64,000 bases of DNA from an uncultured bacterium (GCA_963707865.1 OY970175.1:556011-620010); one strand, 5' to 3'. Shown: positions 58,463 to 64,000, counted from the first letter of the stretch. Translations and numbers: made by a program. Notes: a model not told the origin generated them from the letters alone.

Positions 58463-58666
58463 TTACGGTTTCATGTTTCTGGCTTTCTTGAGAACCTGCG
58501 AGAGCGAATCAACGCCGAGCGATTTCTCCGCGCCACCAAGCGTCTTGATGTTGCCGTGCAGTTTGCTTAGGACGGGATATTCTTTCTTCAGGTTCTCAAT
58601 TAAGGAATCTGCCCGCTCTTTGCGGAAGCGGCCCTCATTTGTTTTTTCGTGTTCTCCAAGTTTCAT
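58463..58666 (-). CDS. small hypothetical protein (67 aa), possible HTH/SAP-like
   Basis: The ORF sits between lexA and the NTase genes with 4-5 bp gaps. KTLGGAEKSLGVDSLSQVLKKAR is helix-turn-helix-like. Confidence 0.4.
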   Translation of the reverse strand: MKLGEHEKTNEGRFRKERADSLIENLKKEYPVLSKLHGNIKTLGGAEKSLGVDSLSQVLKKARNMKP

Positions 58667-58670
58667 AGTA

Positions 58671-59285
58671 TTAATAAATATTTTCCGGAAGCGTTGCGAC
58701 GACGATGCCTTGGATCATGAACTCATCGGACAAGACGATCGGTTTGTGCGTCGGGTCGGTTGAGTTCGGCCTAAGGACAGTGACTCCACCCTCTCGGTGG
58801 AAATGCTTAACCGTTGCATCGTCATTGATCAATGCCACTACCTTATCGCCTTCTTCGGCGGTCGACTGCTGCCGCACGAGCAAAAGGTCCCCGTCATTAA
58901 TCCCCGATCTATTCATTGATGTCCCTCGGGCGCGAAGAATGAAGTACGTGTGCCCGGGATGGGCGATCTTTGTGGAAACCTCAACCATCGCTTCCGAGTC
59001 CTGCTCCGCAAGCGACGGCAAACCACAAGCGACCGATCCCACAAGCGGTACGTTCACGGTTTGTTCGGACAAGGAAGGCATTCGATTGCAGAGATGGATC
59101 ATGCCCTTCGTGCGCTTGATAAAATCACGTTCCTCCAGCCTGTCAAGCATTTTTTCCGCCGAATGGCGGGATTTATATCCCACCGCCCCGGCAATATCTC
59201 GCAACGAAGGGGTCACCCCGGTGCGAATGATCTGATTCCGGATAAAGGCGTATCCCCGAAGGTCGTTTTTCTCGGTTTTGTTCAT
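58671..59285 (-). CDS. lexA: LexA-family transcriptional repressor (S24 self-cleaving peptidase)
   Basis: GVTPSLRDIAGAVGYKSRHSAEKMLDRLEERDFIKR (LexA winged helix), cleavage region VAC-GLP (the Ala-Gly site), RGTSM (nucleophile Ser) and TVKHF (general-base Lys). Confidence 0.8.
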   Translation of the reverse strand: MNKTEKNDLRGYAFIRNQIIRTGVTPSLRDIAGAVGYKSRHSAEKMLDRLEERDFIKRTKGMIHLCNRMPSLSEQTVNVPLVGSVACGLPSLAEQDSEAMVEVSTKIAHPGHTYFILRARGTSMNRSGINDGDLLLVRQQSTAEEGDKVVALINDDATVKHFHREGGVTVLRPNSTDPTHKPIVLSDEFMIQGIVVATLPENIY

Positions 59286-59293
59286 TGCCTCTT

Positions 59294-61524: not shown

Positions 61525-62257
61525 AGCGGGGGCGATCTGGCAACTCGGCAACCACCGCTTGGCGCACGGCGACTGCCGCGACAAGGAATTGCTCAGGCGG
61601 CTCATTGGCGGGGAGAAAATAAATCTTCTCTGCTGCGATGTACCATACGGCGTTTCCGTTGCCGCTTCAAAACGCAATTTCCGAACCCTCTCAAAGGATA
61701 AGGATATAGCGAACGATCAACTTCAAACGGATGGCGAGTACCGAACATTCACGCGCGAATGGATGGAAGCAATCGCGCCCTTCCTCGCAAGCAAAAATTC
61801 AGCGTACATCTTCAATGCCGATAAAATGGTCTGGCCGCTGCGCGAGGGCATGATCGATGCCGGATTCAAGGTGGCGCAACTTCTTGTGTGGATAAAATCG
61901 CAGGCGGTCGTGGGCCGTCTTGATTACGCCCCGCAGCACGAGCTCATCCTCTACGGCTGGCGCGGGACGCACAAATATCGGCACTCCAAGGACAGGTCCG
62001 TTCTCTTTTACCCACGCCCCTCGAAAAGCAAACTCCATCCAACGACTAAGCCCCTGGGCCTTATCCGAAGATTGGTACTCAACTCCTCGGAGATCGGCGG
62101 CATGGTATATGACGGATTTCTCGGATCGGGCACGACGCTCCTCGCATGCGAACAGACGAAACGCAAATGCTTCGCCGTCGAGCTTGATCTTGAGTATTGC
62201 ATGACCGCGATCCGGCAATGGGAGCGTATGACCGGGGAAAAAGCACAACGCATATGA
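61484..62257 (+). CDS. DNA methyltransferase (beta-class, orphan)
   Basis: Motif IV DVPYG, motif I FLGSGTT. The stop overlaps the terS start (ATGA). Confidence 0.75.
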   Translation: MRNSPMKKQKGSNKAGAIWQLGNHRLAHGDCRDKELLRRLIGGEKINLLCCDVPYGVSVAASKRNFRTLSKDKDIANDQLQTDGEYRTFTREWMEAIAPFLASKNSAYIFNADKMVWPLREGMIDAGFKVAQLLVWIKSQAVVGRLDYAPQHELILYGWRGTHKYRHSKDRSVLFYPRPSKSKLHPTTKPLGLIRRLVLNSSEIGGMVYDGFLGSGTTLLACEQTKRKCFAVELDLEYCMTAIRQWERMTGEKAQRI

Positions 62258-62775
62258 AAAAGAGCGATCCCAAAAAAGCATTATTACTTGAGCAGCTACG
62301 GAAAACGCCGATCGTGGAAGCGGCGTGCCAAAAGGTCGGCATCTCCCGGACGACCTACTATCGGTGGAAGCAGGATGATCCGGAATTTGCAAAAGCCACG
62401 GACGAGGCGATGTTCGGCGGGCAATTGCTTGTGAACGACCTTGCCGAAGGACAGTTGATCAGCGCGGTCCGGGAGCGCAACCTCCACGCCATCGTGTATT
62501 GGCTGCGCCACCACCATCCGGACTATGCGGACACGATCCAGATCAAGCATTCCCTCCAAGACGAAACGCTCACGCCCGAGCAGGAAGCCCTTGTCCGGGA
62601 AGCCCTGCGGCTCGCGGCCCTGAGCGAAGCGGAAGTCATAAAACATAACGAACAAAATAATGGACACACCAACACAACATCTCCCGAGCAACCCCCTGAA
62701 ACAGCGAAACCCGATTCCCAAGGAACTGGTGGAGGCGATGATAAAGGACAAGAAAGTAAGAGTGGCGATCACTAA
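62254..62775 (+). CDS. phage terminase small subunit-like HTH protein
   Basis: ACQKVGISRTTYYRWKQDDPEF (HTH), then the AIVYWLRHHHPDY block typical of TerS proteins. The start is the internal ATG coupled to the MTase stop. Confidence 0.6.
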   Translation: MKKSDPKKALLLEQLRKTPIVEAACQKVGISRTTYYRWKQDDPEFAKATDEAMFGGQLLVNDLAEGQLISAVRERNLHAIVYWLRHHHPDYADTIQIKHSLQDETLTPEQEALVREALRLAALSEAEVIKHNEQNNGHTNTTSPEQPPETAKPDSQGTGGGDDKGQESKSGDH

Positions 62776-64000
62776 GGAAAGCCACTGGTACTTCTTCCAC
62801 TTTTACTTCGCCCATTACGTCAAATACCCGACGGCGCAGTTCCAGGCGGAGATTTTCGACCTCACCGAGAATGAGGCGGTCGGTAATTTCTTCGTGGTCG
62901 CGTTCCGGGGCAGCAGCAAATCGACCATCCTCACGACCTCCTACCCCCTCTGGGCGATCTTAGGCAGACAACAAAAACGGTTTGCCCTCATTCTCTGCCA
63001 AACGCAGAGCCAGGCGAAGCAGCATATGATGAACCTGCGGCGCGAACTTGAAAGCAACGTGATTCTCAAACGTGACCTCGGCCCGTTCAAGGAAGAGTCC
63101 GATGAATGGGGATCGTCCTCGCTTGTTTTTTCAAAGCTGAACGCGCGCATTACGGCGGCCTCTTCCGAACAGAGCATTCGTGGCTTGCGACACAACCAGT
63201 ACCGCCCTGACCTCATCATCGGTGATGACGTGGAGGACCTTGCCTCCACAAAAACCCGTGAAGGCCGGAACAAAACGTACCAATGGTTCACGGGAGAGGT
63301 CGTACCGACCGGAGACCGGAATACGCGCATCGTGGTCGTGGGCAATTTGCTCCATGAGGATTCCCTCCTCATGCGGATCAAGGAAGATATTGAGCAGCAC
63401 CGGATTGACGGCATATTCAAGGAATATCCGTTGATCAAAAGCGGCGAGATTCTCTGGCCGGGAAAGTATCCGTCCGTTGAGGATGTGGCTACCGAGAAGA
63501 GGAAAGCTGGAAACGAATTCGCGTGGGAGCGGGAATACATGCTCCATATTGTTCCCGATGAGGAGCAGGCTATCCATAAGGAGTGGATCCAGTATTACGA
63601 CGAGCTACCGCGCGGCGGGACGGACTGCCAGGGATATCCCACACACCGGGAAGTGCGGATCGGCGTTGACCTCGCGATCTCGCAACGCGACACCGCCGAC
63701 TACACCGCGATGGTGCCGGGGCTTGTCTATGACGAGGACGAGGATACTCGCATCTACATCCTCCCGCAGATCGTGAACCGCAAGATGACCTTTCCCGAGA
63801 CGGTGGAACTCTGCAAGCTGCTCCATAACTCTTTTTACAAAGAGGACAGGCAGTATCCCACGTTCGTCATCGAGGATGTGGCGTACCAGAAATCATTGCC
63901 GCAGCAACTTGAAGCGGAGGGCGTTTCCGACGTGGAAACCACGCGACCGGGTAATCAAGACAAGCGCACAAGGATCGTGCTTACCGCGCACAAGATAAAG
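62738..64000 (+). CDS. phage terminase large subunit; C-terminal end runs off the window end (partial)
   Basis: My translation from the ATG at 62738 (GGAGG 2 nt upstream) is open to the window end: MIKDKKVRVAITKESHWYFFHF...VVAFRGSSKSTIL (Walker A)...LIIGDDVED (Walker B)...IGVDLAISQRDTADYTAMV (RNaseH-like nuclease). It is not in the ORF track because it has no stop inside the window. Confidence 0.8.
   Translation, partial: MIKDKKVRVAITKESHWYFFHFYFAHYVKYPTAQFQAEIFDLTENEAVGNFFVVAFRGSSKSTILTTSYPLWAILGRQQKRFALILCQTQSQAKQHMMNLRRELESNVILKRDLGPFKEESDEWGSSSLVFSKLNARITAASSEQSIRGLRHNQYRPDLIIGDDVEDLASTKTREGRNKTYQWFTGEVVPTGDRNTRIVVVGNLLHEDSLLMRIKEDIEQHRIDGIFKEYPLIKSGEILWPGKYPSVEDVATEKRKAGNEFAWEREYMLHIVPDEEQAIHKEWIQYYDELPRGGTDCQGYPTHREVRIGVDLAISQRDTADYTAMVPGLVYDEDEDTRIYILPQIVNRKMTFPETVELCKLLHNSFYKEDRQYPTFVIEDVAYQKSLPQQLEAEGVSDVETTRPGNQDKRTRIVLTAHKIK

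Follow-up and report, generated by a model that had tools for sequence, protein, structure and literature searches.

A window of 64,000 nucleotides from an uncultured bacterium (GCA_963707865.1 OY970175.1:556011-620010; positions are counted from its first letter) was found to carry, near its right end, a LexA-like repressor gene divergent from an operon of methylase and terminase genes. We read this region as the conserved core of a compact phage-derived island which has a terminase without capsid genes, and which would be an SOS-gated, helper-dependent, satellite-like defence island in members of the Candidate Phyla Radiation (CPR, or Patescibacteria). The probability of this reading is put at about one half. 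A first-pass annotation, made from the sequence alone, had taken the same genes for the start of a prophage; the region is neither a prophage start nor a decayed remnant. As would be expected of a satellite, the genes that give packaging its specificity (TerS and TerL) are present and virion structural genes are absent.

Gene content and conservation of the core

The rightward operon had been annotated as five plus-strand genes, namely a 279-aa open reading frame (ORF), a ParB-methylase fusion, a second methylase, TerS and TerL, and all five were recovered by the ORF map and family scans (Pfam, PHROG, NCBIfam, PADLOC and Rfam, with ARAGORN for tRNAs). The core and the gene that borders it on the right are as follows (HTH, helix-turn-helix; TM, transmembrane).

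58671–59285, minus strand: LexA-family autocleaving repressor (LexA_DNA_bind and Peptidase_S24), first gene of the leftward operon
59286–59340, no strand: divergent promoter spacer of 55 bp (leftward promoter from 59321 to 59294, rightward promoter from 59305 to 59334)
59341–60180, plus strand: orf279, first gene of the rightward operon
60247–61524, plus strand: fusion of ParB_N with a beta-class N6_N4_Mtase methyltransferase (phrog_498, E=6e-86; phrog_620, ParB-like, E=9e-24; Pfam N6_N4_Mtase, E=2.5e-22)
61484–62257, plus strand: second, orphan beta-class N6/N4 methyltransferase (Pfam, E=1.3e-25; phrog_498, E=4e-66)
62254–62775, plus strand: TerS-like HTH protein (phrog_309, E=5e-10; phrog_4044, E=8e-10)
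62660 to beyond 64000 (the window end), plus strand: TerL (phrog_38, E=5e-67; NCBIfam terminase C-terminal domain, above cut-off)
ending one base past the TerL stop (64162), minus strand: 184-aa Zn-ribbon/TM protein, convergent with TerL (sub-threshold FxLYD match)

TerL was completed from L001, a 12.4-kb Logan contig retrieved by exact-protein look-up, which matches window positions 55519–64000 identically and adds 3962 bp rightward; coordinates above 64000 are positions projected from this contig, and the sequence readable at this locus to the right of TerL amounts to 3.8 kb. The full protein has 500 aa with its stop at window-equivalent 64162, and the Pfam scan gave no match for it. The ParB_N match of the fusion methylase is weak in Pfam. 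The second methylase is of the beta class, as had been proposed, with motif IV (DVPY) ahead of motif I (GSGTT) in its translation. Gene starts had also been described as overlapping stops in the form ATGA, which holds for the junction of the second methylase with TerS but for no other: orf279 is separated from the ParB-methylase by a gap of 66 nt, the two methylases share 41 nt (or 26 nt if the gene-caller start on L001 is used) and TerS overlaps TerL by 116 nt (or 38). No family match was obtained for orf279 in Pfam, PHROG, NCBIfam or PADLOC, although 29 unnamed homologues were found. Its AlphaFold2 model is confident (pLDDT 85) with a fold that was not assigned to a known type. The protein is treated here as a regulator, probably one that binds DNA.

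TerL has relatives at 56–77% identity in 226 or more species genomes, of which Patescibacteria make up nearly the whole, and the search also brought up over 4,000 protein clusters at the 90% identity level. From this larger set of 226 matching species, 88 TerL-anchored loci were fetched, each with up to 10 kb of flank per side. The core occurs in them in the same order, with the ParB-methylase in 83/88, TerS in 86/88 and TerL in 88/88, and in those 86 loci TerS lies directly upstream of TerL and overlaps it. A separate second methylase gene was seen in approximately 16 of the 88 gene maps. When the 1,516 ORFs of these loci were clustered all-against-all, the only clusters present in more than 12 loci were those of TerL, TerS, the methylase, a large serine recombinase, LexA (28 loci) and a 135-aa ORF (27 loci) which has no family match. 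No structural gene family was found to be conserved across the loci.

The Walker A/B, coupling and nuclease motifs of TerL are invariant in 83 sequences. Rates of substitution were estimated against L090, a syntenic relative (TerL 93% identical; 77% nucleotide identity over the core), giving dN/dS values of 0.026 for TerL, 0.033 for the ParB-methylase and 0.048 for the second methylase, with synonymous sites saturated. At the protein level TerL and the methylases are 89–93% identical to those of L090, compared, among the flanking housekeeping genes at 44644–48001, with 61% for rluA, 67% for the N-terminal part of pilB and 49% for the pilin. Synonymous divergence is uninformative on the age of the island relative to its host, as all sites are saturated. 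Judged by these comparisons, the core is functional and under strong purifying selection.

Extension of the locus to the right had been set beforehand as a test of the prophage claim. The extension shows convergent non-phage genes and no portal, capsid, tail or integrase gene, and portal, capsid and tail genes are missing from the window and its 3.96-kb extension alike. Beyond the Zn-ribbon/TM gene, the minus strand of L001 goes on to encode a secreted SNase, then a membrane protein and a protein with surface repeats. A second cargo slot (the other lies to the left of lexA and is described below) starts at the TerL stop and here holds the Zn-ribbon/TM protein and the secreted nuclease. A direct repeat of tRNA-Ile, looked for as a sign of attachment (att) sites, was represented at best by a 12-mer at chance level in the combined 67,962 bp of window and extension. 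No discontinuity in G+C content was found, the composition being host-like (GC/GC3).

A profile search of viral contigs separated two groups of relatives. Those with a TerL at least 41% identical carry the capsid-less cassette, whereas most of those at 36–40% have the order TerL, portal (MuF), protease and major capsid protein (MCP). The nearest real phages are uncultured IMG/VR contigs (L103–L119), which appear to be temperate tailed phages and several of which have a ParB-like gene upstream of the terminase; TerL identity to cultured phages is at most 27%. The likeness of the island to L103–L119 thus consists of a TerL that is 36–40% identical and of the ParB-like gene upstream, while the portal, protease and MCP genes that directly follow their TerL are all lacking in the island clade. 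No match to the structural proteins of these phages was found in 92 CPR sequences. From this dichotomy, and from the lack of structural matches in CPR loci, the island clade looks like a derived lineage which kept only the ParB/methylase and terminase genes. Two other IMG/VR contigs, L094 and L105, have two tandem full-length TerL paralogues (~560 and 520–530 aa) upstream of a serine recombinase, directly before it in L094 and with one minus-strand ORF between in L105.

Several known kinds of element were considered and found to fit poorly. Of the features looked for as signs of a complete temperate tailed prophage, intact TerL motifs were found, but contiguous structural genes, an integrase and att were not, with 3.8 kb readable to the right of TerL. 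A capsid-forming phage-inducible chromosomal island (cf-PICI) would have its own portal, capsid and head-completion genes, which are absent around TerS and TerL. In the case of a gene transfer agent, the terminase is not in a head-tail cluster and no structural genes lie within 10 kb in any locus, though a cluster might be present in another part of the genome.

The LexA-like repressor and the divergent promoters

The LexA-like protein passes the NCBIfam lexA equivalog model TIGR00498 with 138.3 bits (cut-off 110.95). Comparison with E. coli LexA structures indicated that both residues of the catalytic dyad are kept, Ser in GTSM and Lys in TVKH, and the alignment places the Cys-Gly of a VACG motif at the Ala84-Gly85 cleavage position of E. 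coli LexA. UmuD is likewise cleaved at Cys-Gly.

The spacer between lexA and orf279 had been described as holding back-to-back promoters with -10 boxes 6–8 nt from the start codons, and the scan located both. The leftward promoter is TTGACT-16-TACAAT, with a -10 box that ends 8 nt ahead of the lexA ATG, and the rightward promoter is TTGCCC-18-TAGAAT, with a -10 box that ends 6 nt ahead of the orf279 ATG. This pair represents the only two sigma-70-like sites in 58400–60400, a search for which shuffled sequence yields 1.6 per 2 kb. L090 retains the two hexamer pairs, the spacings of 6 and 8 nt and the first ATG of orf279 (ATG1), but neither the bases that separate -10 box and ATG nor the alternative start ATG2 of orf279. 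Since hexamers and spacings persist where the intervening bases diverge, these are probably real promoters, and the earlier suggestion of leaderless transcripts gains support: the transcripts would have little or no leader and no Shine-Dalgarno sequence. The facing -35 boxes form an imperfect palindrome, TTGCC-N7-GTCAA (59305–59321), which is a candidate operator. Arms of CCTCTT/AAGAGG, 26 nt apart, were also seen in the spacer during the search for an SOS box.

Among close LexA relatives from metagenomes (60–67% identical), an island gene is divergent from lexA in all six informative cases. A LexA-cluster gene was found at 28 of the 88 TerL-anchored loci, the other 60 cores having no adjacent one. 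A scan of the two nearest minus-strand genes upstream of each related core (114 ORFs) detected Peptidase_S24 in 21 and Peptidase_M78 (ImmA/IrrE-type) in four. It had been proposed that the LexA-like protein is a prophage repressor; the link of this regulator to the island is borne out by the six relatives and 28 loci, but the element it would govern is not a prophage. The same counts led to rejection of the possibility that the gene is a stray host lexA.

Two further arrangements were noted around this gene. In loci with another subgroup of LexA (L045, L046, L048, L058, L070 and L080), the lexA-proximal spacer has a near-consensus TTGACA...TATAAT promoter overlapped by the inverted repeat GTGTAAA-N12-TTTACAC, a clearer operator candidate than any in the spacer of the window itself. 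L173 (Ga0208357_1000276, positions 4500–9400) has lexA with an operon of the cyclic oligonucleotide-based antiphage signalling system (CBASS) of the SAVED/SMODS kind and a divergent orf279 homologue that is 76% identical; the methylase, TerS and TerL genes are missing and tRNA genes come after orf279. This arrangement indicates that the pair of lexA and orf279 can be maintained together when the packaging module is absent.

Recombinase, cargo slots and flanking sequence

A large serine recombinase of ~440 aa, co-oriented with the core, was found downstream in 58 of the 88 loci. If the count is limited to loci whose right flank is 8.3 kb or longer (L036 was added by hand), it is present in 49/56 (88%) and absent in 7/56. 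In 25 loci no more than 200 bp separate it from TerL, and in 31 it follows 1–12 variable genes. A representative from L032 has the domains Resolvase, Recombinase and Zn_ribbon_recom and matches the integrase family phrog_95 (E=9e-62). The recombinase is as conserved as TerL, with a mean identity of 0.63. The 140 ORFs found between TerL and the recombinase include type III and IIG restriction-modification (RM) systems, reverse transcriptase with Avd, SNase, and Zn-ribbon/OB proteins resembling superinfection exclusion (Sie) proteins, along with M23 peptidases, transposases and copper resistance (metal-resistance) genes. No portal, capsid or tail proteins were present among the recurrent families of these ORFs.

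Some loci have additional genes of this kind further out. L023, L072, L077, L079 and L080 have a second large serine recombinase, placed either on the opposite side of the core or at a more distant downstream position, which suggests nested or tandem islands or recombinase-bounded cargo. Type I RM-like ORFs (HsdR/HsdM-like, judged by eye; clusters c9 and c12) were seen in L048, L050, L051, L054, L056, L062, L068, L073 and L074, past the recombinase in most of them; L048, L054 and L074 have only c9, and L050 and L073 only c12. The island, or a defence hotspot, may therefore extend past the recombinase.

On the left, the operon headed by lexA continues through orf67, two SMODS genes and SLATT_4 with intergenic gaps of 4–17 nt. 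The features on this side are as follows.

58463–58666, minus strand: orf67, small protein between lexA and the cyclases (ORF; weak PHROG match only)
57210–58457, minus strand: SMODS and AGS_C cyclase of 415 aa, cargo (Pfam SMODS, E=5e-31; AGS_C, E=3e-24; PADLOC cyclase, E=5e-85)
56285–57205, minus strand: SMODS nucleotidyltransferase (CD-NTase-like) of 306 aa, cargo (Pfam SMODS, E=2e-15; PADLOC oligonucleotide cyclase, E=1e-25)
55767–56267, minus strand: SLATT_4 effector with two TM segments, cargo that closes the lexA operon (Pfam SLATT_4, E=3e-7; PADLOC 2TM effector, E=2e-21)
55546–55748, no strand: conserved non-coding segment of ~200 bp at the left boundary of the cargo slot, 3' of the last cargo gene (81% identical to L090 2995–3188)
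54058–54132, minus strand: tRNA-Ile(GAT), found by ARAGORN and Rfam, which marks the left neighbourhood of the island

The two SMODS proteins and SLATT_4 have the make-up of CBASS, a cyclase with an adjacent 2TM effector, and are predicted to form such a system. Relatives of the SMODS and AGS_C protein adjoin the core in L036 and L079, and orf67 has a 38% identical relative in L033. L090 shares pilB, pilin, rluA and tRNA-Ile on the left and the stretch from lexA to TerL and SNase on the right, but between the lexA stop and its equivalent of 55546–55748 it has a different CBASS (SAVED, SMODS and an SEC-C protein), unrelated to the cargo of the window. As another CBASS stands between the same flanks, the SMODS/SLATT genes are swappable cargo. 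The first-pass annotation had seen in them a 'moron' expressed by a lysogen, of which the notion of exchangeable cargo attached to the lexA operon can be kept and the lysogen cannot, the island not being a prophage. The order lexA-SAVED-SMODS was also found in L173, L174/175, L006 and L010.

Pilus genes, rluA and tRNA-Ile lie within 5–15 kb to the left of lexA. The tRNA had been considered a possible att surrounding; it was confirmed and also flanks the island in L090, but no evidence of att accompanies it. Rfam, run on the whole window and again permissively on 54800–55800, found nothing besides the tRNA. A perfect 31-bp inverted repeat (55383–55413 and 55518–55548) encloses 104 hairpin-rich bp, occurs once in the window and gave no match in Rfam; the end of its right arm coincides exactly with the start of homology to L090 (55546). 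It could be an insertion similar to a miniature inverted-repeat transposable element (MITE), a structured RNA or a recombination site. The ~550 bp at 54830–55380 have no convincing ORF or Rfam match and contain a terminator-like hairpin with a T-run on the plus strand (~55143–55175) and a GC-rich structured stretch (55230–55350). Between tRNA-Ile and the island, a CYTH-domain protein is encoded at 54262–54828, a place taken in L090 by an HTH_23 protein of 223 aa. In L052 a CYTH gene with 74% identity lies beside tRNA-Ser/Arg, ~5 kb upstream of a different island variant. The position may be a third variable slot. Between rluA and tRNA-Ile (48133–54019) the window has two ORFs, one of 1400 aa and another of 541 aa that would encode a multi-pass membrane protein (no Pfam match). 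These represent an insertion or deletion difference, since in L090 rluA runs directly into tRNA-Ile.

Interpretation and relation to known systems

In the resting state, the repressor would sit on the overlapping -35 boxes and keep both promoters low. DNA damage or phage infection would lead it to cleave itself, which would raise CBASS expression and switch on the rightward operon. The methylases may then mark island DNA, and TerS and TerL could recognise this DNA and package it, possibly with neighbouring cargo, into capsids of a co-infecting helper phage. Excision and integration of the island would be the task of the serine recombinase in loci that have one.

Several observations weigh against this reading. 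Neither a helper phage nor an excised circle or an encapsidated form was seen, and terminal repeats, which would have pointed to an excised circular form, were sought in the fetched loci and not found. The conserved core does not include a replication module (primase/helicase and origin). A canonical SOS box or other strong palindrome was sought in the spacer without success. No serine recombinase occurs in the window or in L001, of which only 3.8 kb to the right of TerL could be read, and approximately half of the two-methylase subtype has none in ~10 kb of right flank. Between the island flanks, the search of the 67,962 bp gave one 13-mer (expectation 0.09), and no att-like repeat exceeded chance level. 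Pairwise identities of TerL and the recombinase correlate weakly (rho 0.18), as do those of TerL with TerS and with the methylase; for all pairs, LexA included, rho is 0.05–0.21, and such values neither support nor refute linkage. Finally, a relative diverged to the point of synonymous saturation has the island at this very locus, and the composition of the island is host-like; long residence or domestication therefore fits as well as site-specific reinsertion.

The main rival is a domesticated module, a long-resident phage-derived cassette retained for some host function that has nothing to do with its own transfer, for instance interference with the packaging of infecting phages or SOS-induced processing of DNA; the neighbourhood would then be no more than a defence hotspot. 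The shared chromosomal position and host-like GC/GC3 at synonymous saturation agree with it, and so do a TerL that is more conserved than the flanking housekeeping genes, the want of a recombinase in 7/56 well-flanked loci, the missing replication module and the predominance of defence genes in the surroundings. Such a module is less easily reconciled with a co-oriented recombinase in 88% of well-flanked loci that is conserved like TerL, with inducible-repressor modules typical of mobile elements, and with the presence of the cassette in only a few hundred species genomes, which marks it as accessory and not core; nor does PADLOC hold a defence system built on TerS/TerL. Domestication is considered unlikely, though it deserves serious thought. 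A narrower alternative concerns the switch. The LexA-like protein might be primarily an SOS-type regulator of the CBASS cargo, comparable to CapH/CapP, and simply a neighbour of the terminase operon. Its gene shares an operon with CBASS in the window, L090, L173, L174/175, L006 and L010, DNA-damage regulators of CBASS are established, 60/88 cores have no adjacent LexA-cluster gene and L173 retains lexA and CBASS without the terminase genes. However, the promoters stand back to back with overlapping -35 boxes in a geometry that has been kept despite divergence of the spacer, an island gene is divergent from lexA in 6/6 informative relatives, and other cores have different inducible repressors near the same position. 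This restricted role is considered doubtful.

A true prophage, whose structural, lysis and integrase genes would be located beyond the 3.96 kb read on the right or would be too novel to be recognised, is highly improbable. Methylases ahead of TerS/TerL and a divergent S24 repressor are indeed a normal layout for temperate phages, and just 3.8 kb past TerL is visible here. Against this, the genes after TerL are convergent and non-phage, the 10-kb flanks of the relatives hold no conserved downstream family except the recombinase (in many cases no more than 200 bp from TerL), on the left the pilus and rluA genes of the host are found within 4–11 kb, and the structural proteins of the nearest phages match nothing. 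Equally little credence is given to an inert remnant of a degraded prophage under neutral drift, which had been named as an alternative in the first-pass annotation. It would account for the absent structural genes and for L173, which lost methylase, TerS and TerL and keeps lexA and orf279, but the same gene subset is intact in 83–88 of 88 loci from diverse CPR, catalytic motifs are invariant, dN/dS of 0.03–0.05 implies strong purifying selection and both promoters are conserved.

The satellite-like defence island shares with PICIs, such as the Staphylococcus aureus pathogenicity islands (SaPIs), and with cf-PICIs a compact form, an operon with a divergently oriented master repressor, packaging gene(s) of its own, defence cargo and the absence of tail genes. 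Reliance on the virion of a helper phage, another trait of PICIs, is proposed here as well. Of the terminase genes, classical PICIs have TerS alone, and they carry a tyrosine integrase along with a primase/replication module; cf-PICIs have TerS and TerL together with portal and capsid genes. The island, in contrast, has both TerS and TerL with neither a capsid gene nor a replication module, and its relatives use a large serine recombinase. The PICI-like elements (PLEs) and virion-encapsidated integrative mobilizable elements (VEIMEs) are small integrative satellites, some with serine recombinases and some with TerS homologues and RM or abortive infection (Abi) cargo (PMC9618062). Large-terminase genes are listed there among functions presumably derived from helper phages, and no TerL is reported in PLEs or VEIMEs (PMC9618062). 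The island, as known from its genes, has no sequence relationship to the PLEs of Vibrio cholerae or to marine VEIMEs, belongs to another host phylum and includes TerL.

Staphylococcal cassette chromosome elements of the SCCmec type (CcrA/B/C) are similar in being cargo islands moved by large serine recombinases without a transfer apparatus of their own. Against the CcrB/CcrA/CcrC models, the recombinase of the relatives gives matches with E-values from 2e-34 to 5e-14, which fall well short of the curated cut-offs. To our knowledge, a terminase, methylase or SOS-type repressor module is not part of SCC elements. With lambda cI/cro and other LexA/S24 switches the region has in common an autocleaving S24 repressor with a winged HTH, divergent promoters and possibly leaderless transcripts, but it has no Cro homologue and no palindromic SOS box, and what would be switched is a CBASS and a packaging operon instead of a lytic cycle. 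CapH/CapP, CapW and CapK/CapS are damage-responsive regulators of CBASS, and the resemblance lies in a damage-sensing repressor at the head of a CBASS operon. The island differs from these in having one LexA-family S24 protein as its regulator, predicted to be co-transcribed with CBASS; the CapH/CapP paper mentions neither LexA nor S24. No prior description of a methylase-TerS-TerL cassette was found in the literature searched.

If the island is a satellite, its design is unusual, combining TerS, TerL and a serine recombinase without replication or capsid genes. A LexA-family repressor at the head of a CBASS operon would extend DNA-damage control of CBASS beyond regulators of the CapH/CapP type. 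Prophage callers that depend on terminases will mislabel such islands as prophages, and several are already present in IMG/VR as viral contigs. It is tentatively suggested that the capsid-less CPR islands are a previously undescribed family, which has retained from its phage ancestor just the methylase-TerS-TerL packaging module, in most cases accompanied by a large serine recombinase and an SOS-type repressor. They would be self-packaging phage satellites, the first to be proposed for Patescibacteria, which may shuttle interchangeable CBASS, RM, Thoeris-like and diversity-generating retroelement (DGR) cargo between ultra-small bacteria without conjugation systems. Patescibacteria have tiny genomes and their gene exchange is little known, and the island would be a plausible vehicle for the horizontal spread of immunity among them.

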